Program-made: the position numbers and the translations under genes | Notes under the pieces: generated by a model | The model's input: only the letters and a program-made list of their open reading frames with translations | Databases searched by the model: none | Told to the model about the DNA's origin: nothing | Shown: in pieces, positions 9,195 to 48,965 of the stretch | Layout of the letters: each line of letters starts with the position of its first letter | Position numbering within the stretch: the first letter of the stretch is position 1 | From: a bacterium | Lineage (GTDB): Bacteria; Patescibacteriota; Patescibacteriia; CAZCGY01 | Assembly (NCBI GenBank): GCA_043807225.1 | Contig: JAZDGG010000067.1 | Location: 1-61,997, forward strand | Length of the DNA: 61,997 nt | Direction: 5' to 3'

Positions 9195-9268
9195 TGGCAG
9201 GGGCGGAAGGTGTTGCGCCCTCGTTTCTGGTTTTGGAGACCAGTGTTCTACTGTTGAACTACGCCCCC
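9195..9268 (-). tRNA. tRNA-Trp (anticodon CCA) with atypical D- and T-loops, CCA encoded
   Basis: The manual cloverleaf is GGGGGCG-TA-GTTC-AACAGTA-GAAC-A-CTGGT-CTCCAAA-ACCAG-AAAC-GAGGG-CGCAACA-CCTTC-CGCCCCT-G-CCA. It is close to the E. coli tRNA-Trp layout, but the D-loop lacks GG and the T-loop lacks TTC. Confidence 0.8.
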
Positions 9269-9440: not shown

Positions 9441-9890
9441 CTACCAATTCACGGATGCTGCGTGTGCATGCTCCGAGCGAAGCCAATCTTCTGCGGCGCC
9501 TCGACTGGCAAAATAATGAATCTTATCCATGAAAAAGATTGGCGCGAGGAGGATGGCAACGATGGCCCTCTGAATCGTTGTCGCGTGCACAAGCGCGACC
9601 TTTGTCAACCGTTCGTCGCGAAGAAGATGTGTGTACCATTCGCTCGCTTCATGCGGTGGGCGGTGATCCTCGGGAACATTTTTGAGATCGACAAGCGCCG
9701 TCCAGGTTGCATCCCGAGAATGTTCTTTAAGTACAGAGAGACACTCGGCAAACCACTGCGCCTCATGAACAACAGCAGCATCTGATGAGCGCCTCCCGCC
9801 GAACGTAACGGTGATGATGCCATCCTCCGTTACTTCCCACGTCCCGCCGGTTTCGGCAAAGTTCTTCTGTCCAAGAACCTTCGCGATCAT
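9441..9890 (-). CDS. Hypothetical protein, possibly STAS/SpoIIAA-like
   Basis: A strong RBS (AAGGAGGGG) precedes ATG 9890, which lies directly after the rpmG stop. The layout and the C-terminal ...AAEDWL motif resemble STAS/SEC14-like DUF proteins. The functional call is weak. Confidence 0.5.
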   Translation of the reverse strand: MIAKVLGQKNFAETGGTWEVTEDGIITVTFGGRRSSDAAVVHEAQWFAECLSVLKEHSRDATWTALVDLKNVPEDHRPPHEASEWYTHLLRDERLTKVALVHATTIQRAIVAILLAPIFFMDKIHYFASRGAAEDWLRSEHAHAASVNW

Positions 9891-16253: not shown

Positions 16254-17363
16254 CTACTGCTGGGTTCCGTACGACACCCCCTCGTCCTCCGGTGTCACCT
16301 CGACCCACGTCGACCCGCGAGTGAAGACTGCGGGCTTTCCGTCCTCAAAGAAAAAATCTGTTCTGCTCGTTCGATCCTTCTTCGACCACGTGCCGACATT
16401 GGCGCCACCATCGATGAACAGCAGCGCTTTCCCCGTTCCGGTGACGTCGAGTGTCAGACGGCCTTTCTCGCCAACATCGAGAATTTTTGGGATGATCTGA
16501 AGAATGACATTCTTCACGTGAATCTGCTGGCCCGTGAGTGCATCCGTATGCGGCACGCCGGCATTCAGACGAGCGTAGTCATTTGTCGCTCGCGCATAGC
16601 GGTACTCAACGGCATAGGTGCGGCCGGAGAAGTCCGCTTTGGCGTATGCGCCGTCGGCGGGTCGCGCGGCAATCGGCGGATCGTCTTTGTACTGCCAAGA
16701 GGTAAAGGTTGGCGTCGCGGCGGCGAGCCCTATGTCCGCTAACGCCCGCGTTAGCAGATCACTGGACGTGAAGAGATTGTGTGGCGCTGCAATGGTGTGA
16801 TCGCGAAAGAAATACTTCGCTCCATGAGCGATACCGTTAAGATCTTTGATCGAAAATCCGCTGATCTCCTGGAGCGCCTCGGGGCTTCCGCCGGCGTGCG
16901 CATGAAGCGCATCAACCTCCGAGTTCCATTCCAGGTAGTACGGGCGGGCGGAACGGACGGGGCCGATTTTCTCCAGATGGTCGCCCGGACCCTCAAACAG
17001 CGCGAGAAAGCGCGTTGCACCACCTTCCGCCAGAGTTTCATAGACGATTGACGCGTCGGCAAGACCGGCTTGCGGCCTGACCTGCGCAAGGTTCTCGATC
17101 ATCACACCAACGGGATACGGCTGCGCGCTTCCGGCCGGGAGTGGTTCTCCGTCAAGAAGACGGTAGGAAACCGACGGCGTCGTTTTCGCTTTCAGCCGCA
17201 CTCCCGCTAAGAGCGAATTCTCTCCCCAAGGCAGATAGGTGACCAGAACCGAGCCGATGGTGATCCACGCGAAAACGACGCCAAGGATCAGTACAACGAC
17301 GAGAAGTAGTCGCGGGTCGCGAAAACGAAAATGTCTTTTGCTCTTTTTTTCTTCTTCCTGCAC
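16254..17363 (-). CDS. DUF3048 domain protein (YerB-like), membrane anchored
   Basis: The motifs MIENLAQVRPQAGLADASIVYETLAEGGATRFLALF and VRSARPYY, together with HAGGSPEAL, are typical of DUF3048. Confidence 0.85.
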   Translation of the reverse strand: MQEEEKKSKRHFRFRDPRLLLVVVLILGVVFAWITIGSVLVTYLPWGENSLLAGVRLKAKTTPSVSYRLLDGEPLPAGSAQPYPVGVMIENLAQVRPQAGLADASIVYETLAEGGATRFLALFEGPGDHLEKIGPVRSARPYYLEWNSEVDALHAHAGGSPEALQEISGFSIKDLNGIAHGAKYFFRDHTIAAPHNLFTSSDLLTRALADIGLAAATPTFTSWQYKDDPPIAARPADGAYAKADFSGRTYAVEYRYARATNDYARLNAGVPHTDALTGQQIHVKNVILQIIPKILDVGEKGRLTLDVTGTGKALLFIDGGANVGTWSKKDRTSRTDFFFEDGKPAVFTRGSTWVEVTPEDEGVSYGTQQ

Positions 17364-17369
17364 GATTCG

Positions 17370-18458
17370 TTATAAATAGCTTACGCCCCGGTCATCCGGC
17401 ACCATCTCCACCCACGTCTGGCCGGCAACGAAATGCACTTCTTGTTCTTGCGAATCGTAAAAGCGCGTTCGTTCGGTTGCCGAGGACTTTTTCCAGGTGA
17501 CCGGAATGTTCTGACCGTTCTGAAAAAGGACGCCGAGCCCTTCGCCGATCGTATCGATCTGCAGGCGCCCTGCTGCATCGGCTAGTTTCGTCGGCACATA
17601 CTGAATGACGATGTTCTTCGGAGTAATATTCCTCCCCTCCTCTGTTACTTGCGGTTGCTCGGCAAGAGAGCGAAGGTAGGTATTCTTCTGCGGATCATAG
17701 GTATAGCCGACCTTGTAGTTGAAGGAGGAAAAATCGATGGTGATTGTTTTTCGTGCTGTCGGACGCTCGGCAACCGGCGCGTCATCACGAAAGAGCCATG
17801 GATCGTAGCTGCCGACGAGCGGGGCATCTTTGTCGCGCAGCGCTCGCGCGATCAGTGTCGATGACGTGTAGAGGGTATGTTCAAGCGCTTTCGTTTTCAA
17901 TCGATCGGCATCTCGCCAGAAATACTGGCTGTTGTAGAATTGGTTGAAATCTTCGATTGCGGATCCAGAAATCGCTTGGAGTGCCTCTGGGCTTCCTCCC
18001 GCGTGCGCAAAGAGACAGCCGAGTTCCTGCACAATGCCGAGGTGAACGCCCCGCGCAGAACGAACAGGGCCGATCTTCTCCACATTGACCCCTGAGCCGT
18101 ACACCGCAAGAAAACGGGTAATGCCTCCCTCCGCAAGCGTTTCGTAGACCAGATTTGCCTGCTCAAGACCCGACTGCGGCCTTGCGGCAACCAGATTCTC
18201 AATAACAACGCAGGTAGGAAAGTAATTCGCATCCTTCACCCCAACGACAACCCCGTCAATCGCGCGACGGGCGCGCTGTTGCGTCGCCTGAGTATTGGTG
18301 TTCTTCGAGGTTGCAATTGGAGCCCCACCCCCGCCGAACAGCACATACCCGGCTCCTGCAGCAACAAGGAGGAGGAGAAGCACCAGCACGACGAACTGTG
18401 CTCGGCGGTTCTTTCGAAAGCTCCAGAGGGCATTTTTGATTGATTGGGAAAACGACAT
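17370..18458 (-). CDS. DUF3048 domain protein (tandem paralogue)
   Basis: VIENLVAARPQSGLEQANLVYETLAEGGITRFLAVY, VRSARGVH and HAGGSPEAL show the same architecture as the neighbouring gene. Confidence 0.85.
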   Translation of the reverse strand: MSFSQSIKNALWSFRKNRRAQFVVLVLLLLLVAAGAGYVLFGGGGAPIATSKNTNTQATQQRARRAIDGVVVGVKDANYFPTCVVIENLVAARPQSGLEQANLVYETLAEGGITRFLAVYGSGVNVEKIGPVRSARGVHLGIVQELGCLFAHAGGSPEALQAISGSAIEDFNQFYNSQYFWRDADRLKTKALEHTLYTSSTLIARALRDKDAPLVGSYDPWLFRDDAPVAERPTARKTITIDFSSFNYKVGYTYDPQKNTYLRSLAEQPQVTEEGRNITPKNIVIQYVPTKLADAAGRLQIDTIGEGLGVLFQNGQNIPVTWKKSSATERTRFYDSQEQEVHFVAGQTWVEMVPDDRGVSYL

Positions 18459-25600: not shown

Positions 25601-26090
25601 AAAAATTCTCACCCGCGGCGGCGAGCCGATGATCTTTGTCAAGATCGAGGACTTCACCGGATCCCTCGAGGCAGTGGTTTTTCCGAGCGTCCTCAAACAA
25701 AAACCGGCCGTATGGCAAATTGACCAGATTCTCCTTCTTGAAGGGCGACTGTCTGATAAAGATGGAACGATCAAGGTTCTGGTCAACGAGGCGTGGGCAT
25801 TTGATCCAGAAGCGCTCCCGCCGCAGTTTGTTCCTCGGCAACCAGCTGCAGCCCCGCAGGTGCACATCACGATCACCGTTCCTGCGCAGACCGACACGCA
25901 GCTCTTCGGCGAGCTGAAGGAAGTGCTCGCCCGCTTCCCGGGGGAAACGCGCGTTCACCTCACCGTCCAAGGGAATCGCCCGCGGACTATTGCAACGCAC
26001 TTTCGCGTCGCGCACTCCCCCGATCTCGTTCGGGCCGTTGAGCTGGTTCTTGGGACACAGGCAATTTCTGTGACACGGGCTACAACATGA
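22614..26090 (+). CDS. dnaE: DNA polymerase III alpha subunit
   Basis: The product has a PHP domain (FVHLHTHSHFSLLDG), palm/fingers motifs (GPGRGSAAGS, PDIDIDF) and an OB fold at the C-terminus. At 1158 aa there is no sign of an intein. Confidence 0.95.
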   Translation: MGHPMSFVHLHTHSHFSLLDGLPKIDELVLRTRELGMPAVALTDHGVLYGVIEFYQKAREAGVQPIIGVEAYCARNKLTDRGTGTDDRPYHLILLAKNERGYQNLVRLITIGHLQGYYYKPRIDFDALARHHEGLIVLSGCLNGHVPSLLRAGKTDAARAAVRQYHDLLGEDYFLEIQNRPTILEQAQVNTTLKEFSRDLHIPLVATNDCHYLRKEDADAQDILMCIQMKRRVDEANRMSYIGENFSLIPPQEMRDAFADTPEAIENTLKIAERCKLTLELGHVQLPHFPTPHGLTADQYLRKLCERGLERRYGADARKRTDVLERLNYELRVIEKTGFGSYFLIVQDFTNWAKDQGIVVGPGRGSAAGSIVAFLTNITNVDPLRYELLFERFLNPDRISMPDIDIDFADIRRDEVIRYAEQKYGRDPVAQIITFGTMAARAAVRDVGRVLGLPYSYCDRVAKLIPMFTDLSKALAMVPELREIFENDPDGRRLLESAKKLEGVARHASRHACGVVITKDPLQELIPLQRAGQDDSSIITQYSLHPIEDLGLLKIDFLGLSNLTILQKAIDIVEKTRGMIVNLDAIPLDDAETFTLLQRGQTIGVFQLESSGMRRYLKELRPNALEDIIAMVALYRPGPMELIPQFIDGKHGRRKARYLHPKLQPILDKTYGVAVYQEQVLQMARDLAGFTMSEADVLRKAVGKKIASLLQEQRQKFIEGCVKNDIERKTAEQIFAFIEPFARYGFNRAHAACYGLIAYQTAYFKANYPAEFMASLLTSDQHNTDRIAIEVDECRQMGIEVLPPDVNESFDSFTVVVDEEGHPSSRIRFGLSAIKNVGDHVAEAILRERKANGPYQGIEDFLGRIGTKDLNRKSLECLVKAGALDGFAERNQMLSNIETLLQFARQTEKAAANGQTNLFGMLPADHAPTLKLRPSDPVTDEQKLSWERELLGLYLSSHPLAPHRDILSTITHSIIESRKMANGAMVKLGGLVTDMKKILTRGGEPMIFVKIEDFTGSLEAVVFPSVLKQKPAVWQIDQILLLEGRLSDKDGTIKVLVNEAWAFDPEALPPQFVPRQPAAAPQVHITITVPAQTDTQLFGELKEVLARFPGETRVHLTVQGNRPRTIATHFRVAHSPDLVRAVELVLGTQAISVTRATT

Positions 26091-27256
26091 CGAAACGGCG
26101 AAAAAAAGTGTCCGCAAGGGCTTTCCAGCGACAGGTACTGGCGTTTGTCGGTGCGACGCTGCTCGTGCTCATCGTTGTCCTCTACTTCTCGTTCTCCCGA
26201 ACCGTGATCACCGTCACCCCAAAGATTGAGAAGCAAACGATCACTATCGAGCTTACTGTCGGCCCCGCATCGTCCGCTGTGACCAATGCAACCACCGTGG
26301 ATCTCGCAGGGACGGTTATCACAATGGACCTTGAACGGACGAAGACGGTCTCGGATCTTTCACAGAAAGAGGATGTCCCCGCGCGCGCCGGCGGCCGGGT
26401 GACCTTTATCAATCAATGGACAAAAACGCAGCCCCTCCAAGCAGGCACACGATTGCTCTCTCAGAACGGCGTGCTCTTTCGGACAACGGAACGCGTCGAC
26501 ATCCCCGCGGGGGGGAGCGTTGAAACGACCATCCTCGCGGACGAGCCGGGCACAAGCGGCGAGGTTCCTCCAGGCACATTCATCATCGTCGCTCTCTGGG
26601 AGGGACTCAAGTCACAAATCTACGCCGAGAGTACGGAAGCGTTCACCGGCGGCACGGTGCAACAAGCCAGCGTCTCGCAACAGGACCTCACGGCAGCCCG
26701 AACGGCGGCACTTGAAGATTTTCGGCAAGCGGCACAAACGATGCTTGATGCCAAACTTGCGATGGATGCTTCATCAGCACGCTTACACGTCGCCGCCATT
26801 CTGCCCAACATCACCCAAGAACGCTCCTCGGCAAAACTGGGTGATACGGTCAGCACCTTCGACTATGTGCTGAAGGGCTCCGCTGTCGGCGTCGCAGTCG
26901 ACGAGACGGCATTGGCCACTTTGGTTACGACTGACGCGGCAAAGCGCGTTGCGGAGCATCATCGCCTACTGCGCGTTCAAACTGCCCAGCCGGCTTTCTC
27001 CGTTGTTCGCGCCGACCCAGAACAAAAAACCGCGACGATCAAAACGCAGGTCGTCGCGGAGACCATACTGCGATCGACAAGCCCGATCTTCTCGCCACAG
27101 GCGCTCACCGGCATGGATCGACAGGAAATCGACGATCATTTCAATCAGTTTGACGAAGTTCAGGAAGTTTCGGTGCGCTTCTCTCCATTCTGGGTCTTGC
27201 GCGCACCACGTTTGCCCGACCACATCAAGATCCTGCTCAAAGAGCCGGTGAACTAG
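26087..27256 (+). CDS. Membrane-anchored hypothetical protein, possibly baseplate J/gp47-like
   Basis: Its start overlaps the dnaE stop (ATGA). An N-terminal TM helix is present. From memory, the pattern ...AGGRVTFINQ...AGTRLLSQNGVLFRTTERVDIPAGGSVETTILADEPGTSG... resembles proteins annotated baseplate J-like in small genomes. Confidence 0.55.
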   Translation: MTKRRKKVSARAFQRQVLAFVGATLLVLIVVLYFSFSRTVITVTPKIEKQTITIELTVGPASSAVTNATTVDLAGTVITMDLERTKTVSDLSQKEDVPARAGGRVTFINQWTKTQPLQAGTRLLSQNGVLFRTTERVDIPAGGSVETTILADEPGTSGEVPPGTFIIVALWEGLKSQIYAESTEAFTGGTVQQASVSQQDLTAARTAALEDFRQAAQTMLDAKLAMDASSARLHVAAILPNITQERSSAKLGDTVSTFDYVLKGSAVGVAVDETALATLVTTDAAKRVAEHHRLLRVQTAQPAFSVVRADPEQKTATIKTQVVAETILRSTSPIFSPQALTGMDRQEIDDHFNQFDEVQEVSVRFSPFWVLRAPRLPDHIKILLKEPVN

Positions 27257-27632: not shown

Positions 27633-29390
27633 ATGAAGACCGACGAACAACTTCAGCATCTTCGCCATTCGCTTGCGCACCTGCTTGCTGCAGCGGTCAT
27701 GGAGCTCTGGCCCGATGCGCAACCGACGATCGGCCCGGTCATCGAGGATGGGTTTTATTACGACTTCGCCTTCCGCCAGCCGATCACCGAGGCCGATCTG
27801 CCGAAGATCGAGAAAAAGATGCGTGAGATCCTCCCGACCTGGTCGACGTTTGAACGGTCGGAATCGACGCCAGAAGAAGCTCGCCGCGAGGTTGCTGGAA
27901 ATCCGTTCAAGCGCGAACTCATCGACGATTGCGCAAAGAGCGGAGAGAAGATCACGTTCTATCGCTCCGGCGGATTTGTCGATCTCTGCCGCGGCGGCCA
28001 CGTGGACGACATGCGGAACGTCAAACCAGACGCGTTTCAGCTGACAAAAATCGCCGGTGCCTACTGGCGCGGGGACGAGAAGAACGCCATGCTCACCCGC
28101 ATCTACGGCATGGCGTTCCCCACGAAAAAGGAGCTGGAGGACCGGCTCGCCGTCATCGCAGAAGCGGCCAAGCGCGACCACCGCAAGCTCGGCCAGGAGC
28201 TCGACCTCTTCTTCTTCTCGCAGAACGTTGGCAGCGGACTGCCGATCTTCACTCCGCGGGGCACGATCGTTCGAAACGCCATCCGTCAGTTCTCGCTGGA
28301 ACTCCAGCTTGCCGCCGGCTATGAAGAAGTCTACACGCCGAACATGAACAAGGCGGAGTTGTTTAAGATTTCTGGACATTACGAAAAGTTCCGCAGCTCG
28401 ATGTTCAAGGTGCTCTCGAACTACGGCGAGGAGGAATTCTATCTCAAGCCCATGAACTGCCCACAGCATACGCAGATCTACGCGGCAAAATTGCGCAGCT
28501 ACCGCGACCTCCCGCTCCGTTATGCCGACTTTGCGAATCTGTATCGGGATGAAAAGCCCGGCGAGATCGGCGGCTTAACGCGCGTACGATACTTCAGCCA
28601 GGACGACAGCCATTGTTTCTGTAGAGAAGACCAGATAGAGAAGGAAATGGCCAACATCTTCGGCATGATCAAAAAGCTCATGCGGGCGTACCAACTGGAG
28701 TACTGGATCCGCCTCTCCTTGCGAGACCCGAAGTCAAAAAAGGACTATCTCGGGGCTGATGAGGTGTGGGAGAAAGCCGAGACGACGATGGGGTCGTTCC
28801 TCAAACGGCATGCGATCCCCCATACGCGCGCAGAAGGCGAAGCAGCGTTTTACGGCCCGAAGATGGACCTCATGTGCACAACCGCCATCGGGAATGAGTG
28901 GCAACTTGCGACGATCCAACTGGACTACATTATGCCCGAGCGGTTTCATCTCACCTATATTGACAAGGGCGGAAAGGAGGCACGCCCGGTGATGATCCAC
29001 AAGGCCATGGCCGGCTCGCTCGAGCGTTTCATCGCCATCCTCCTTGAGCACACCGGAGGGAACCTTCCGCTGTGGCTTTCGCCGGTCCATGTACAGATCC
29101 TCCCCGTTGCAACTCGCCATCGCATCGGGGCAATCAAGCTCGCCAAGGAATTCCACCTCGCGGGTATTCGTGCGTACGTTGATGAGGCGAACGAAACCGT
29201 CGGGTACAAAATCCGCACCGCGTCACGTCTGCGCGTGCCGTACGTGGTCGTTTTCGGCGACAAGGAAGCAGTATCAGCAAAGCTGGCCGTGCGAGTGCGA
29301 GGCACAACATCGGTACGTCTGGTCACAAAGAAACGGTTTTTCGAACGGGTGGGAGTCGACATCGTCAAACGCGCATTCCGTGTCACGTAG
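27633..29390 (+). CDS. thrS: Threonine--tRNA ligase (lacks the N-terminal TGS domain)
   Basis: The protein starts in the editing/SAD domain (HLRHSLAHLL...GPVIEDGFYYDF). It has the class II motifs (FYLKPMNCPQHTQIY, YRDEKPGEIGGLTRVRYFSQDDSHCF) and an anticodon-binding C-terminus. Confidence 0.95.
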   Translation: MKTDEQLQHLRHSLAHLLAAAVMELWPDAQPTIGPVIEDGFYYDFAFRQPITEADLPKIEKKMREILPTWSTFERSESTPEEARREVAGNPFKRELIDDCAKSGEKITFYRSGGFVDLCRGGHVDDMRNVKPDAFQLTKIAGAYWRGDEKNAMLTRIYGMAFPTKKELEDRLAVIAEAAKRDHRKLGQELDLFFFSQNVGSGLPIFTPRGTIVRNAIRQFSLELQLAAGYEEVYTPNMNKAELFKISGHYEKFRSSMFKVLSNYGEEEFYLKPMNCPQHTQIYAAKLRSYRDLPLRYADFANLYRDEKPGEIGGLTRVRYFSQDDSHCFCREDQIEKEMANIFGMIKKLMRAYQLEYWIRLSLRDPKSKKDYLGADEVWEKAETTMGSFLKRHAIPHTRAEGEAAFYGPKMDLMCTTAIGNEWQLATIQLDYIMPERFHLTYIDKGGKEARPVMIHKAMAGSLERFIAILLEHTGGNLPLWLSPVHVQILPVATRHRIGAIKLAKEFHLAGIRAYVDEANETVGYKIRTASRLRVPYVVVFGDKEAVSAKLAVRVRGTTSVRLVTKKRFFERVGVDIVKRAFRVT

Positions 29391-30120
29391 ACTTCGCAGC
29401 GCAGAGTGGTTTCTCATCATCGGTCTTGGCGCCGTGATCGTGTATGGCGCCGTGATCCTTTCGTCACCATCGTTCGCTGCAACGGTCAACCAAGGATGGA
29501 CGTGGGTACGGGATATGAGTCTCCGCCATGGCTACCTTGGTGCCATTCTTGCCTCCATGCTCGCGAATGCGAGCGTCATCATCCCCATTCCCTACACGGC
29601 GATTATCCTCATCGTCGCTGCTGCCGGGCTCAATCCGTGGATTCTCGGCATTACCTCCGGAATCGGCGCAGCACTGGGAGAGGTGACGTCGTACACCGTT
29701 GGGTATATTGGCTATCGGCTCGGCAAGGAAGCTGTTGAGAAGAAAACGGCGGCAATCCGACAGCTTGCGGACGAGCGGCCGGGAATGATGTTCCTCATCC
29801 TGTTTATTGTTGCAGCAACACCGATCCCCGACGGACCATTCATGATCCCGCTCGGCATGATCCGCTACAATCCGCTGCGTGCCATGCCACCATTCATCCT
29901 CGGAAAGATCGTGATTACCACCTCCATCGCACTTTTCGGTACCTATACGCACATCAGCCCATCGCTTGGCACGGCAAACACGAAGGATTTTCTCCTGAAC
30001 ATCCTTTCACTGATGATTACGGTTCTTGTCGTGTACATCATTCTCAAAATCCCTTGGGAACGCTATGGGCACCACCTGCTTTCGTTTGCGCAACTCCGGA
30101 ACAAGCTTCATCTGAGGTAA
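29380..30120 (+). CDS. DedA/VTT (SNARE-associated) family membrane protein
   Basis: The in-frame GTG 29380 overlaps the thrS end. YLGAILASMLANASVIIPIPYTAIILIVAA and multiple TM helices support the call. The start is uncertain. Confidence 0.65.
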   Translation: MSRRLRSAEWFLIIGLGAVIVYGAVILSSPSFAATVNQGWTWVRDMSLRHGYLGAILASMLANASVIIPIPYTAIILIVAAAGLNPWILGITSGIGAALGEVTSYTVGYIGYRLGKEAVEKKTAAIRQLADERPGMMFLILFIVAATPIPDGPFMIPLGMIRYNPLRAMPPFILGKIVITTSIALFGTYTHISPSLGTANTKDFLLNILSLMITVLVVYIILKIPWERYGHHLLSFAQLRNKLHLR

Positions 30121-32283: not shown

Positions 32284-32688
32284 ATGGTCCGTACGAATAG
32301 CCCTCCTCTCCCCCACCCCCTCTCCTCCTCGAGGAGGAGAGGGCGGGGTGAGGCGGTGAAAAAAGCTCGTGCACTTCGAAAAAATCAAACCCCGTGGGAA
32401 TACAAACTGTGGCAGCGACTCCGCGCACGACGATTCTTTAGGTTTCGAATGAAGCGCCAAGTGCGCGTCACCCCATACATCGTTGACTTTTGTTGCTATG
32501 AAAAGCGACTGGTAATCGAACTTGACGGCAGTTACCATACCCATCCTCGAAAAAAAGATATGGACGAAAAACGAGAAAAATATCTCCTTCAGAAGGGTTT
32601 CCGCGTTCTTCGATTCTGGAATAGTGAGATTGACGATAATCTAGAAGGCGTTTTGGAAAGAATCTTTATATTTCTGACGTCAGAATAA
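32284..32688 (+). CDS. DUF559 endonuclease-domain protein (Vsr-like fold)
   Basis: ARALRKNQTPWEYKLWQRLRARRF...YIVDFCCYEKRLVIELDGSYH...LQKGFRVLRFWNSEI supports the call. The real start may be GTG 32356, downstream of a palindrome. Confidence 0.85.
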   Translation: MVRTNSPPLPHPLSSSRRRGRGEAVKKARALRKNQTPWEYKLWQRLRARRFFRFRMKRQVRVTPYIVDFCCYEKRLVIELDGSYHTHPRKKDMDEKREKYLLQKGFRVLRFWNSEIDDNLEGVLERIFIFLTSE

Positions 32689-43199: not shown

Positions 43200-44159
43200 T
43201 TATCCGTTATGTTGTTTCTTTTCTCGCCACGCCGTGCGCATGTGGTACCAGAAGAGCGGCATCGCGATAATAAGAAAGGAGAGTTCAAAAGAAAGCGCGT
43301 TCTGACGCGTCCGCGACGACGAGGAGGCGGAATTTCTCGTTTGCCAAAGATCGTAGTCGCCTTTCCATGACGCTGCGAGCGAGATGGTCTCGCTACTCAG
43401 GCCACACGCAGATCCACAGGTCACAATACTTTCAACGCCCTTGCGCTCTTGACTCGATACTTCGATCGGCACAGTTGCGGATTTTCCCATTCCGGTTTCC
43501 GCGCCGGGGATGGCCATGCGCAGCAGTGTATTGACGAGGAATCCCGCTGCAATCACGCTCGTCAAAAGCCAGACAAATCCCATCGCGGTAAAGTGCGTTG
43601 AGCGCGTGAGGTTGTTCCCCTCTTCGAGCGTCTTTCGATCGCGTACCACCAGACGCCAATGGAACAAAAAGACTACCAGTGCGACGATGAGGAAGGAGAG
43701 CGGCGTAATAATCGCTTGTGCGCGCTTCACCGTGGTGCCGCTGGTCTCCTGCCACTGCTGGTAGTTCTGCCGCCAGCTGCCAATATTCGACTTCTGCTGA
43801 TCCGTCAGTGTACACCCATTCGCGCACGACAGCGTCTCTGGACCGACGGGCGCCTCTGTCGTCTTCATGGGCTCCAGATACAGCGACGGGGGTGGCGAGG
43901 CAAAGTAGCCCATAAACGGGTCCGCGGAACGGAACACCCAGGCACGCATCCCGAGATCAAGCAGAGAAACGAGCGCCGCACCGATGAACAGCAGGGTGAC
44001 AAACGAGACGAGGTAGATATACCCCCGGCGGACAATGGTTGTCCGCCCGACGCTCGTCTGACGCGCATCATGCATCGCCGCAACACCAAGCGCGACCAAC
44101 GCCACGAAGGAGATGGCAAGAATGATAAAGAGTGCAGGAAAGAAAAATTCAGGTCCCAT
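43200..44159 (-). CDS. Polytopic membrane protein with an internal duplication (319 aa)
   Basis: It has two similar modules: LSCANGCTLTDQQKSNIGSWRQNYQQWQ...FLFHWRLVVRDRK and VTCGSACGLSSETISLAASWKGDYDLWQ...LFWYHMRTAWREKK. The gene sits between rplK and rplA. Confidence 0.7.
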   Translation of the reverse strand: MGPEFFFPALFIILAISFVALVALGVAAMHDARQTSVGRTTIVRRGYIYLVSFVTLLFIGAALVSLLDLGMRAWVFRSADPFMGYFASPPPSLYLEPMKTTEAPVGPETLSCANGCTLTDQQKSNIGSWRQNYQQWQETSGTTVKRAQAIITPLSFLIVALVVFLFHWRLVVRDRKTLEEGNNLTRSTHFTAMGFVWLLTSVIAAGFLVNTLLRMAIPGAETGMGKSATVPIEVSSQERKGVESIVTCGSACGLSSETISLAASWKGDYDLWQTRNSASSSSRTRQNALSFELSFLIIAMPLFWYHMRTAWREKKQHNG

Positions 44160-44592: not shown

Positions 44593-45138
44593 TTAGATCT
44601 TTTTAATCTGAAGAAAGTCGAGTTCCACCGGCGTTTCGCGACCGAACATCGAGACGAGGACTTTGCACTTCCCGCGCGCTTCATCAATCTCTGCGACCTT
44701 CCCTTCGAACTCCTTGAACGGGCCATCGACGATGCGCACCGGCGACCCAACTTGGACGTCGATCTTATACTTCGGCTCTTCGACCCCCATGCGCTTCTGG
44801 AGTTCCTTGACCTCTGTTTCAGAAATCGGCGTCGGGGTGGTTCCTGAGCCGACAAAGCCGGTGACATTTGGGGTGTTGCGGACGACGTACCAGGAGTCGT
44901 CCGTCACGATCATTTCGACAAGGACGTACCCCGGGAAGATCTTTTCGGTCACCACTTTGCGCTTGCCGTCTTTAATCCGGATCTTCTTTTCGGTTGGAAT
45001 AAGGACGTTGAAGATTTTCTCCTCCATATCCATGGATTCGATACGCTGCCGCAAGTTGCGAGCAACGTTTTCTTCATACCCGGAATACGTGTGGAGGACA
45101 TACCAGCGACGGCCACGTTGAGCGGTTTGTTTTGGCAT
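44593..45138 (-). CDS. nusG: Transcription termination/antitermination factor NusG
   Basis: [14 protein letters not shown] marks the NGN domain and the C-terminal KOW motif is [18 protein letters not shown]. Confidence 0.95.
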
Positions 45139-45144
45139 GGGAAT

Positions 45145-45330
45145 TTAGGAGATGACTCGTTGAAGAATAGCGTTGAGGAGAAAATCAATCAATCCGAGAA
45201 AGAGCGCGACACCGAGCGAAACGCCGATGACCAGCAGGGTGTTGCGGATGGTCTCTTGGCGGGTTGGCCAAACCACGCGTCGGAGTTCGTCGCGGGATTC
45301 CTTGAGATACGTGACCAGTTTATTCGCCAT
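45145..45330 (-). CDS. secE: Preprotein translocase subunit SecE
   Basis: I take ATG 45330. The product MANKLVTYLKESRDELRRVVWPTRQETIRNTLLVIGVSLGVALFLGLIDFLL supports the call. Confidence 0.85.
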   Translation of the reverse strand: MANKLVTYLKESRDELRRVVWPTRQETIRNTLLVIGVSLGVALFLGLIDFLLNAILQRVIS

Positions 45331-45417
45331 GATCGATTCTGAAAACTCCCCGGATCGGGGAGAAATGCTCCGCTTTTGAGAATACACCACCCGAAAAAAA
45401 CACGCAAGCCGCCCTGA

Positions 45418-45963
45418 TTACAGCTGATCCCGCTTCATGCCGAGGGCATACCCGATTGCGCTGACGGTGACATGAAGGCAAAAGCCAACTCCAAGAGTCC
45501 CAAGGATGATCGACCATGTCGGCTGGAACAGCGGGAGGGTGAACAGGATTCCGCCGACGACGTAGTCCAGCTGGTCAAATGGGACAAAACGCCCACCGGG
45601 ACGAATCCCGACGCGCCGTTTGACCGCGCTTCGAAAGAGATCCCCGATGATCGCGCCGAAACCCGCAAGAACCCCAAACCAGACCGCCATATCCGGATAG
45701 TGGAAGAAGCCGAGTGGTGCCGCCCATGGAGTCGCCGATACCAGCTGCTGCCACCAAAAACCGATGATCCCGAAGACAACGGCTGCGAGAATCCCCCGGA
45801 CGGTTTTATGTGTGCCAAAAATCCCCCGATTCCCAAGAAGGCGATCAACCGGAATAGCGAGCGCGGAAAAGTGGTGGCGGACCAGCACCGGCGCGATATT
45901 CGCAAACCCCATCGGGAGAAGGTACCACGCGCATCGGAGCACAAAGGTCCACAGTGCTTCCAT
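45418..45963 (-). CDS. CDP-archaeol synthase-like (CarS / DUF46 family) cytidylyltransferase
   Basis: By eye the product aligns with archaeal CarS: LLPMGFANIAPVLV, GTHKTVRG, FGAIIGDLFRSAVKRRVGIRPGGRFVPFDQLDYV and HVTVSAIGYALGMK. ATG 45963 overlaps the upstream stop (TGATG); GTG 45966 is also possible. Confidence 0.8.
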   Translation of the reverse strand: MEALWTFVLRCAWYLLPMGFANIAPVLVRHHFSALAIPVDRLLGNRGIFGTHKTVRGILAAVVFGIIGFWWQQLVSATPWAAPLGFFHYPDMAVWFGVLAGFGAIIGDLFRSAVKRRVGIRPGGRFVPFDQLDYVVGGILFTLPLFQPTWSIILGTLGVGFCLHVTVSAIGYALGMKRDQL

Positions 45964-46451
45964 CACAAGAGCAGCTGAATCGTAAAGACAATGAAGAAGA
46001 GCAACCGAAGCGGTACGATCAGCATCCGCTGCTGGCGGACGGCCACGATCGCAAGAACAGTGTTAAGGAGAAAGAGCGGAAACCATGGGAGGAAGAAGGG
46101 CGGGATGACAAAGAGGACCCCCTCAGATGCTCGGTCAGCGATGATATCGACAAGTTGCCCGTGCTGCTGCTGAATCCGCGTTTTTCGATAGAGATACTTC
46201 CGTGCAATCGCACCGTCGAGTCCGTCAAGAAAAAGATGGATCACGAGAAAGATCCATGCGACGAACAGCAGCTGGATACTGACCGCAACGACAAAGAGAA
46301 AGGCGACGAAAATGGCGACAAGGGAAACGAGATCGGGATTGATGCGGGGAAGCGGAAATGAAGCGTACCATCTGTCAACTCTGGCGCGCAGCCGATTCCA
46401 ATACGCTGGACGTGTGTCCTCGATCCGCCTCACACTCTTCAATGGACGCAT
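45963..46451 (-). CDS. CDP-alcohol phosphatidyltransferase family protein
   Basis: I take ATG 46451, because the rest of ORF 45963..46640 overlaps gyrB. The motif DGLDGAIAR...GQLVDIIAD corresponds to Dx2DGx2AR...Gx3Dx3D. Confidence 0.8.
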   Translation of the reverse strand: MRPLKSVRRIEDTRPAYWNRLRARVDRWYASFPLPRINPDLVSLVAIFVAFLFVVAVSIQLLFVAWIFLVIHLFLDGLDGAIARKYLYRKTRIQQQHGQLVDIIADRASEGVLFVIPPFFLPWFPLFLLNTVLAIVAVRQQRMLIVPLRLLFFIVFTIQLLL

Positions 46452-46524
46452 GATCGCCTTCTGTCGCTGGGGACGAGGACGCTTCTGCGTGGCCTTCACG
46501 ACCGATGTGCGGGAGATCGTGCGG

Positions 46525-48965
<2,441 letters not shown>

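Follow-up and report, generated by a model that had tools for sequence, protein, structure and literature searches.

A 62-kb stretch of patescibacterial DNA (contig JAZDGG010000067.1 of assembly GCA_043807225.1; 61,997 nucleotides, analyzed whole and hereafter called the window) carries two minus-strand genes that probably form a coupled two-step module for placing head groups on phospholipids. One encodes a 181-amino-acid (aa) protein of the CarS family, which is named for the archaeal cytidine diphosphate (CDP)-archaeol synthase, and the other a shortened CDP-alcohol phosphatidyltransferase, here termed the partner. Our preferred reading, to which we give a probability of about 0.6, is that the CarS-type enzyme fills the role of bacterial CdsA and acts on salvaged acyl phosphatidate. 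The evidence comprises family membership and fold, intact catalytic motifs, coupling of the two genes, and purifying selection, together with conserved synteny, recurrent pairing, and natural fusions. We infer that the substrate is acyl rather than isoprenoid-ether, that the head group is of a phospho-polyol kind, and that CdsA is missing from the genome as a whole.

The CarS-like protein

The 181-aa protein is a CarS family member, as judged by profile and by predicted fold. The Pfam CarS-like profile (PF01864) matches it at 69.7 bits (E 4e-19; cut-off 22) from residue 7 to residue 178 and over profile positions 3-171 of 175, whereas the profile of the CdsA family (PF01148) reaches 32.5 bits and covers only residues 54-129 (profile positions 170-238 of 264). 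Among solved structures, CarS of Aeropyrum pernix (ApCarS; 5GUF) is the sole full-length sequence match (E 3.4e-8), and the match to CdsA of Thermotoga maritima (TmCdsA) is confined to the C-terminal core (residues 102-155, E 0.008). An AlphaFold2 (AF2) model made with 14 homologues has five membrane helices, with a predicted local distance difference test score (pLDDT) of 93 and a predicted template modeling score (pTM) of 0.86. Foldseek ranks 5GUF first for this model (probability 1.00; target-normalized template modeling score [TMt] 0.76; root mean square deviation 3.4 Å over 159 columns), at 26% identity to ApCarS, and finds a partial overlap with the TmCdsA fold (query-normalized score [TMq] 0.45). 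The initial annotation of this DNA, made by eye from sequence, had called the protein CarS/DUF46 and not bacterial CdsA. Both parts of that call stand, and the best profile match is to CarS rather than to some different family.

In the alignment of the 14 homologues, N22, K53, G107-D108, K115-R116, D130-Q131-x-D133, and H164 are invariant; the same residues, and T54 beside K53, are identical in ApCarS and invariant or nearly so among the homologues. All of them except H164 are putatively the conserved polar residues of the cytoplasmic cavity that holds cytidine triphosphate (CTP) and metal. By its score, the protein nevertheless appears to be no equivalog of the characterized CarS. On the NCBIfam model for CarS (NF003114), methanogen CarS scores 209 bits, the Kerfeldbacteria protein 152.6, proteins of DPANN archaea 144-150, those from other Candidate Phyla Radiation (CPR) members 120-147, and the window protein 98, which makes the window copy the most divergent from the canonical model among the proteins scored.

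A mistaken call of a true CdsA was also considered and was rejected. PF01148 and CdsA match the C-terminal core only, and the nine-helix architecture of CdsA, with its N-terminal and dimerization domains, is not found in the protein.

The partner transferase and its coupling to CarS

The partner gene (45963-46451, minus strand) encodes 162 aa, starting with an ATG at 46451 and ending with a TGA at 45963-45965, and the CarS-like gene (45418-45963, minus strand; five predicted transmembrane helices) starts with an ATG at 45963 and has its stop at 45418-45420. The stop of the first and the start of the second, read directly from the sequence (TTGTGATG, 45961-45968, minus strand), share 1 nucleotide (nt) in the junction 5'-TTG TGA TGG-3', as the initial annotation had noticed. 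An in-frame GTG one codon upstream of the CarS ATG would give a 182-aa alternative and an overlap of 4 bases instead of 1; close CarS homologues are 180-182 aa long and align from the ATG at 45963. Because the TGA and ATG overlap and the sequence read contains no Shine-Dalgarno motif upstream of the CarS start, the junction bears the usual signature of translational coupling. The partner itself has a Shine-Dalgarno-like hexamer, AGAAGG (46457-46462, minus strand), 5 nt upstream of its ATG, which favors the 162-aa form over the 190-aa public gene call with a start farther upstream (P0125), this choice of start being not fully certain.

The Pfam CDP-alcohol phosphatidyltransferase profile (PF01066) matches the partner at 38 bits (cut-off 22), over profile positions 3-97 of 152 only, and the catalytic motif is complete (D76-x2-D79-G80-x2-A83-R84-x13-G98-x3-D102-x3-D106), in keeping with its first description as a minimal member of the family. 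Neither this Pfam match nor that of the CarS-like protein is plausibly due to chance. Its AF2 model (pLDDT 79) begins with an amphipathic interfacial helix followed by five predicted transmembrane helices, so that it falls short of the canonical six-helix core. Relative to the corresponding partners in Peribacteria and Gribaldobacteria, about 50 residues are absent near the C terminus and 5 residues are inserted in the motif loop.

Several rankings bear on the acceptor. On NCBIfam models the partner scores 41 bits for archaetidylinositol-phosphate synthase (AIPS; NF040950, cut-off 180), 25.4 for PssA (TIGR00473, 107), 21.8 for phosphatidylinositol-phosphate (PIP) synthase (PIPS; NF045883, 170), and 14.2 for PgsA (TIGR00560, 109). 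AIPS is the best-scoring model for every CPR partner tested, usually with PIP synthase second. A profile of the partner family, compared with solved structures, finds di-myo-inositol-phosphate-phosphate (DIPP) synthase, then mycobacterial PIP synthase, AF2299, and PssA, without reaching PgsA, and in the PDB the best folds, aligned over about 118 residues, are those of Mycobacterium tuberculosis PIP synthase (6H5A/6H53), AF2299, and PIPS 5D92. Both sequence and fold rankings point towards a phospho-polyol acceptor without establishing one.

Pairing and fusion in other lineages

Association of the two genes is apparent well beyond the window. A CDP-alcohol phosphatidyltransferase gene is adjacent to CarS or overlaps it in Peribacteria (L005 and L007), in Gribaldobacteria-like loci (L014 and L017), and in the clade of the window (L009-L011 and L016), with an overlapping arrangement like that of the window in L009, L014, L016, and L017. 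In a Woesearchaeota locus (L018), the order is phosphatidylserine (PS) decarboxylase, PssA, DUF212 (PAP2-like), and CarS, and this PssA scores 130 bits, above its cut-off of 107.

The exhaustive search described below also recovered single polypeptides that join the two activities. In three of them (P0181, P0192, and P0297), a CDP-alcohol phosphatidyltransferase domain of about 150 aa lies N-terminal to CarS, and in two of these (P0181 and P0192) that domain is 37-40% identical to the window partner over 126-144 residues and has the same short form. In four more (P0200, P0226, P0252, and P0314), CarS is fused to PAP2 or to DUF212, a divergent PAP2; such fusions would suit a pathway with a phosphatase as its third step, which a phospho-alcohol head group would call for. 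The CarS fusion proteins span 310-353 aa and come from public metagenomes. The initial annotation had read the pair as a two-step module of CDP activation and head-group transfer, and that reading is strengthened by the recurrent adjacency in other lineages and by the natural fusions.

The two structural models offer a possible rationale. They suggest that the partner has its N terminus inside and its C terminus outside, and that CarS has its N terminus outside and its C terminus inside. This would be the only arrangement permitting fusion with both active sites cytoplasmic, and a topology compatible with fusion would explain the absent sixth helix of the partner.

Distribution, synteny, and phylogeny

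Relatives of the CarS-like protein are numerous. A profile search returned at least 2,753 proteins with E ≤ 1e-5. When 1.84 billion cluster representatives were searched exhaustively, 3,060 matched at E ≤ 1e-3, 482 of them at E ≤ 1e-30, and a scan of a genome collection with a single protein query found at least eight loci. The best 120 matches of the profile search are nearly all 166-189 aa long, and the named organisms among them are CPR bacteria ("Patescibacteria group," Kerfeldbacteria, and Gribaldobacteria) and DPANN archaea (Woesearchaeota and Nanoarchaeota). Several of the CPR and DPANN matches are already labeled CDP-archaeol synthase by NCBI and JGI, which on the CPR proteins may be a misleading functional label. 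The gene had first been presented as an archaeal-type gene in a bacterium. Archaeal in type it is, but it is not rare, being widespread and held in partly conserved synteny. The initial annotation had also foreseen that it might belong to an ordinary, widespread bacterial DUF46 clade of known function; a widespread clade of CPR and DPANN proteins does exist, but not one of known function.

Gene order ties the CarS-like gene to a housekeeping locus. The order pheS-pheT-gyrB-CarS-secE-nusG-L11-L1 is kept in a Kerfeldbacteria locus (L013) and in L015, without the transferase, and in the clade of the window (L009, L010, L011, and L016) the transferase is inserted between gyrB and CarS. GyrB identity to the window is 80% in L010 and 63-66% in L013 and L015 (66% in L013). 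With the closest metagenome contigs, the window shares 91-98% identity in NusG and 69-80% in GyrB; the closest labeled genome is a Kerfeldbacteria metagenome-assembled genome (MAG), with 66% in GyrB, 78% in NusG, and 64% in L11. Together with the DUF5671 gene between L11 and L1, these identities assign the window to CPR (Patescibacteria). The CarS slot thus appears, from gene order, to be old within this part of CPR, which would exclude a recent transfer or a chimera. Contamination or chimerism was also rejected directly, as the synteny recurs on independent assemblies.

One of the assemblies that contributed to this comparison, GCA_040960375.1, includes two loci related to that of the window but unlike each other (L009 and L016) and so behaves like a metagenome or mixed bin.

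A neighbor-joining tree (100 bootstraps, reduced taxon set) unites the CPR and DPANN sequences, with a canonical methanogen CarS outside them, in all 100 bootstraps, which supports a CPR and DPANN subfamily distinct, on this sequence evidence, from canonical archaeal CarS. Within it, the labeled CPR sequences exclude the labeled DPANN sequences in a weak 59 of 100 bootstraps, and the Peribacteria join other CPR sequences in none of 100. Because a separate CPR clade is weak and the Peribacteria stand apart, we make no claim as to which way, or how many times, the gene was transferred between CPR and DPANN. Two MAGs labeled Methanosarcinales (L001 and L002; 33-36% G+C) have a CarS that clusters with DPANN and not with canonical methanogen sequences, and their labels may be wrong.

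Ratios of nonsynonymous to synonymous change (dN/dS), computed against three relatives at saturated synonymous sites, are about 0.14-0.15 for CarS, 0.17-0.40 for the partner, and 0.03 for NusG. These values indicate that CarS and its partner are under purifying selection but evolve fast. Together with the conserved gene order, they suggest that both genes keep a housekeeping role.

Lipid genes and lipid sources

A Pfam scan of the roughly 40 open reading frames (ORFs) of the window found no CdsA, PlsX/Y/C, geranylgeranylglyceryl phosphate synthase (GGGPS), UbiA-type prenyltransferase, or glycerol-1-phosphate (G1P) dehydrogenase, in agreement with the initial observation that backbone and prenyl-transfer genes are missing from the window. 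Among the Pfam families listed for the nine CPR loci with gene tables (L009-L017; flanks of about 10 kb), there is likewise no GGGPS/UbiA, G1P dehydrogenase, CdsA, or PlsX/Y/C, a PlsC-like protein in L012 apart. That locus, from a Patescibacteria MAG, has between positions 1212 and 6540 the order H+-pyrophosphatase, PlsC-like acyltransferase, acyl-activating AMP-ligase, a 165-aa gene, and CarS. No lipid genes other than its acyltransferase and AMP-ligase were seen next to a CarS of CPR, and the neighborhood looks like one for lipid salvage. L012 also carries two genes of the inositol-monophosphatase family 5 kb downstream of CarS.

Phosphatidylglycerol is the lipid that Lgt consumes. A 2016 KEGG table for a complete Peribacter genome lists dgkA and two lgt genes, has no cdsA, pgsA, pssA, or plsC, and gives no label for a pair of CarS and CDP-alcohol phosphatidyltransferase; the CarS pair is unconfirmed in that genome, so that the table is only suggestive. 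Peribacteria are reported to lack fatty-acid synthesis, with the source of their membrane lipids unclear (PMC4736985), and CPR genomes more generally are without a complete lipid pathway, in cells whose membranes are of ordinary fatty acids and enriched in lysolipids (PMC7242380). As for the enzyme itself, CarS activity in membranes of Methanothermobacter thermautotrophicus is reported, from older assays, to show no strong preference for ether over ester bonds or for a G1P over a glycerol-3-phosphate (G3P) backbone (reviewed in PMC9385802).

Gene neighborhood and other features of the window

The pair does lie inside the gyrB-secE-nusG string of a bacterium, as described at the outset. The genes given below with coordinates, from gyrB to L1, are on the minus strand. 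Upstream is gyrB (ORF bounds 46525-48690), 73 nt from the partner start, with pheS and pheT beyond it. Downstream, 87 nt from the pair, is secE (45145-45330; 61 aa, its start at MANKLV set by homologues of 55-67 aa), followed by nusG (44593-45138), L11 (44165-44590), a gene for a 319-aa DUF5671 membrane protein (43200-44159), L1 (42496-43176), and then gatB. The DUF5671 gene between L11 and L1 is kept in L009, L010, and L016 and absent in L013 and L015. In the 87-nt gap before secE, a weak terminator-like hairpin (45397-45425, minus strand) overlaps the CarS stop and is followed by a run of seven T residues. Its role as a terminator is only a possibility, because the seven terminator-like sites in the region are not above the shuffled expectation of 5.2 ± 2.7. 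A promoter scan of the region gave no match. G+C content of the window is 55%, and all three stop codons are in use.

Two further genes in the window touch on lipids. DedA proteins have been implicated in the flipping of lipids and polyprenyl-phosphate, and a DedA/VTT-domain membrane protein (about 29400-30120, plus strand; ORF 29044-30120) matches PF09335 at 29.8 bits, just below the cut-off. It directly follows thrS, as it does in L010, and might bear on lipid handling. A 149-aa ORF (9441-9890, minus strand) gives a divergent match to CRAL/TRIO lipid-binding proteins (E 7.8e-4; 20.2 bits against a cut-off of 23) that may be due to chance.

Elsewhere, two tandem paralogues (16254-17363 and 17370-18458, minus strand) each have the N- and C-terminal domains of DUF3048 and an N-terminal membrane anchor. 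A DUF559 gene (Vsr-like endonuclease fold; 32284-32688, plus strand) lies between miaB and miaA, which are adjacent in L010 and L011, and may be a small mobile insertion. A third tRNA (9198-9268, minus strand) is found by Rfam at 56 bits and is absent from the ARAGORN output. A 389-aa ORF (26087-27256, plus strand) overlaps the end of dnaE by 4 nt and has a weak Baseplate_J-like match (26.9 bits) that is unexpected at this place.

Discussion

In the mechanism that we propose, ribosomes coupled by re-initiation would make both enzymes from the same message. The 181-aa CarS-family enzyme would use CTP to attach cytidine monophosphate (CMP) to the phosphate of a glycerolipid in the membrane, giving a CDP-lipid and pyrophosphate. 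The five-helix transferase would then hand the phosphatidyl group of this CDP-lipid on to an alcohol, for which a phosphorylated polyol such as inositol-1-phosphate or glycerol-3-phosphate is the likeliest candidate. The CarS-type enzyme would in this way take over the job of CdsA in the lineage. Phosphatidate would be supplied by salvage, whether from host diacyl lipids, from re-acylated lyso-lipids, or from re-phosphorylated diacylglycerol, and a cell without de novo lipid synthesis would thereby rebuild the anionic phospholipids that it needs. A bolder extension, which we consider rather unlikely, is that CPR and DPANN share a CarS-type salvage activator that replaces CdsA, accepts host lipid in either acyl-ester or isoprenoid-ether form, and works in a dedicated complex with the five-helix transferase.

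Several observations weigh against an acyl-phosphatidate module. To our knowledge, no enzyme of the CPR and DPANN subfamily has been assayed. Outside CPR, the nearest relatives are proteins of DPANN archaea, whose substrates are presumably archaeal lipids, and the 98 bits of the window protein fall below the NF003114 equivalog cut-off of 148. The absence of CdsA is seen only over 62 kb of this genome and, indirectly, in the one KEGG table of 2016 for Peribacter, a different CPR lineage. On the side of the partner, every head-group subfamily score is far below its cut-off, the last third of the model is of low confidence (pLDDT 63-71), and the protein appears to lack the counterpart of the final helix or helices found in canonical enzymes, a part that helps to shape the acceptor pocket in the solved PIP synthases. 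One relative of the partner (P0131; 56% identity, on a 1.5-kb contig) has its motif degraded to D-G-L-S-S-A-I-E-R; parts of the clade may have an inactive transferase or be able to do without it. Finally, purified CarS of Archaeoglobus fulgidus prefers digeranylgeranylglyceryl phosphate (DGGGP) over phosphatidate and does not complement an Escherichia coli cdsA mutant (PMC9385802). For this reason, activity on acyl phosphatidate cannot be assumed for a CarS protein.

An unlikely alternative is that the protein is a genuine CDP-archaeol synthase that activates DGGGP or archaetidic acid, with the partner adding the head group and the lipids either made by the cell, from GGGPS and DGGGP synthase (DGGGPS) encoded elsewhere, or taken from an archaeal host. 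CarS family membership and fold, the DPANN CarS proteins as nearest non-CPR relatives, and AIPS as the best subfamily of the partner are all as this alternative predicts. It gains from the mevalonate pathway of unexplained purpose in Peribacteria (PMC4736985), from one Parcubacteria genome reported with both GGGP and DGGGP synthases (PMC7852524), and from the finding that some CPR bacteria parasitize methanogenic archaea (PMC12281837). However, neither the window nor the CPR loci with gene tables hold GGGPS/PcrB, UbiA-type DGGGPS, or G1P dehydrogenase, the only lipid genes adjoining a CPR CarS are of the acyl type (L012), and community lipidomics assigns to CPR fatty-acid lipids and lysolipids, not archaeols (PMC7242380). 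The window protein moreover lies farthest from the canonical CarS model among those scored, at 98 bits compared with 209 for the methanogen protein. Overall, the evidence leans from archaeol-type ether lipids to salvaged acyl phospholipids, a choice on which the initial annotation had taken no side.

Other explanations fare less well. The CTP-transferase superfamily also holds CTP-dependent polyprenol kinases, such as dolichol and phytol kinases, and the pair could act on polyprenyl phosphate, polyprenol, or a CDP-polyprenyl intermediate, with the partner building an envelope polymer linkage and not a glycerophospholipid. That superfamily membership, the weak PF01148 co-match on the CarS-like protein, PAP2 and DUF212 fusions that could equally mean recycling of polyprenyl-pyrophosphate, and the heavy genomic investment in envelope glycopolymers and isoprenoids (PMC4736985) are consistent with such a role. 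We nonetheless judge it improbable, since a CDP-alcohol phosphatidyltransferase needs a CDP-linked donor, and its fusion to or overlap with CarS implies a CDP-lipid intermediate rather than a kinase product. The full-length match is to CarS and not to the kinase-containing family, and the Woesearchaeota CarS shares its operon with an above-cut-off PssA and a PS decarboxylase, an unambiguous phospholipid pathway. Highly improbable, in our view, is that the genes were recently acquired by horizontal transfer, stem from a chimeric assembly that includes archaeal DNA, or are a functionless remnant in decay. Archaea are the typical carriers of the family, the partner is shorter than canonical enzymes and has a relative with a degenerate motif, and both genes evolve much faster than nusG; yet the same gene order is found on independent NCBI, JGI, and Logan contigs, and the gyrB-CarS-secE slot is common to Kerfeldbacteria at 63-66% GyrB identity. 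Catalytic motifs are intact, synonymous divergence is saturated while nonsynonymous divergence stays far lower, and the truncated form of the transferase also occurs as a fusion domain.

The means by which CPR bacteria acquire and keep up their membranes are still an open question; according to a 2024 perspective, the mechanisms by which they take up and process lipids have not been identified (PMC11665869). The two-gene module offers a concrete, testable entry point. The chemistry, both protein families, and machine-annotated CPR homologues are already known. In the literature searched, CarS or CDP-archaeol and CPR or Patescibacteria are co-mentioned only incidentally, and no paper links CarS to CPR. 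It appears to be undiscussed there that CPR broadly carry an archaeal-type CTP transferase, that it sits in a housekeeping locus, that its subfamily is shared with DPANN, and that it is paired or fused with a five-helix partner. The module also has a bearing on the lipid divide, in that the CTP-transferase step of CPR lineages would depart from the boundary between domains. If the extension to a shared salvage activator were true, a single enzyme family would operate on both sides of the lipid divide in two great radiations of episymbionts, and archaeal lipids with new head groups could occur in CPR cells that live on archaea.

Comparison with known systems

Archaeal CarS (PF01864, 5GUF) is the closest known counterpart of the window protein. 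The two share a length of about 180 aa, five transmembrane helices, a full-length match of profile and fold, and the conserved Asn in the first helix, G-x-x-K-T loop, G-D, K-R-R, and D-Q-L-D of ApCarS. Presumably they also share the same chemistry, in which CMP passes from CTP to a lipid phosphate; the A. fulgidus enzyme was reportedly characterized by Jain et al. in 2014. In contrast to archaeal CarS, the window protein belongs to a bacterial host without a visible ether-lipid pathway, is 26% identical to ApCarS, lies below the NCBIfam cut-off, and falls in the CPR and DPANN subfamily, with a substrate that is predicted to be acyl phosphatidate. CdsA (PF01148, T. maritima 4Q2E) is of the same superfamily and catalyzes the same reaction that we propose, and its C-terminal core (G-D...K-R...D) aligns, whereas its nine helices and its N-terminal and dimerization domains have no equivalent in the window protein.

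For the partner, the nearest systems by profile and fold are AIPS (NF040950), PIP synthase (6H53, 6H5A, and 5D92), AF2299, and DIPP synthase (4MND). Like these inositol-phosphate-type transferases, it has its motif on helices 2-3 and an N-terminal interfacial helix; unlike them, it has five helices rather than six, about 50 fewer residues near the C terminus, and a 5-residue insertion in the motif loop. As a whole system, the module most resembles the Woesearchaeota operon of L018, in which the same CarS subfamily is tied to a CDP-alcohol phosphatidyltransferase; the organism there has a reduced genome and presumably relies on others for its lipids. The two differ in the head group, as L018 has a clear PssA and decarboxylase for serine or ethanolamine, whereas the window partner belongs to a truncated, AIPS-like clade.

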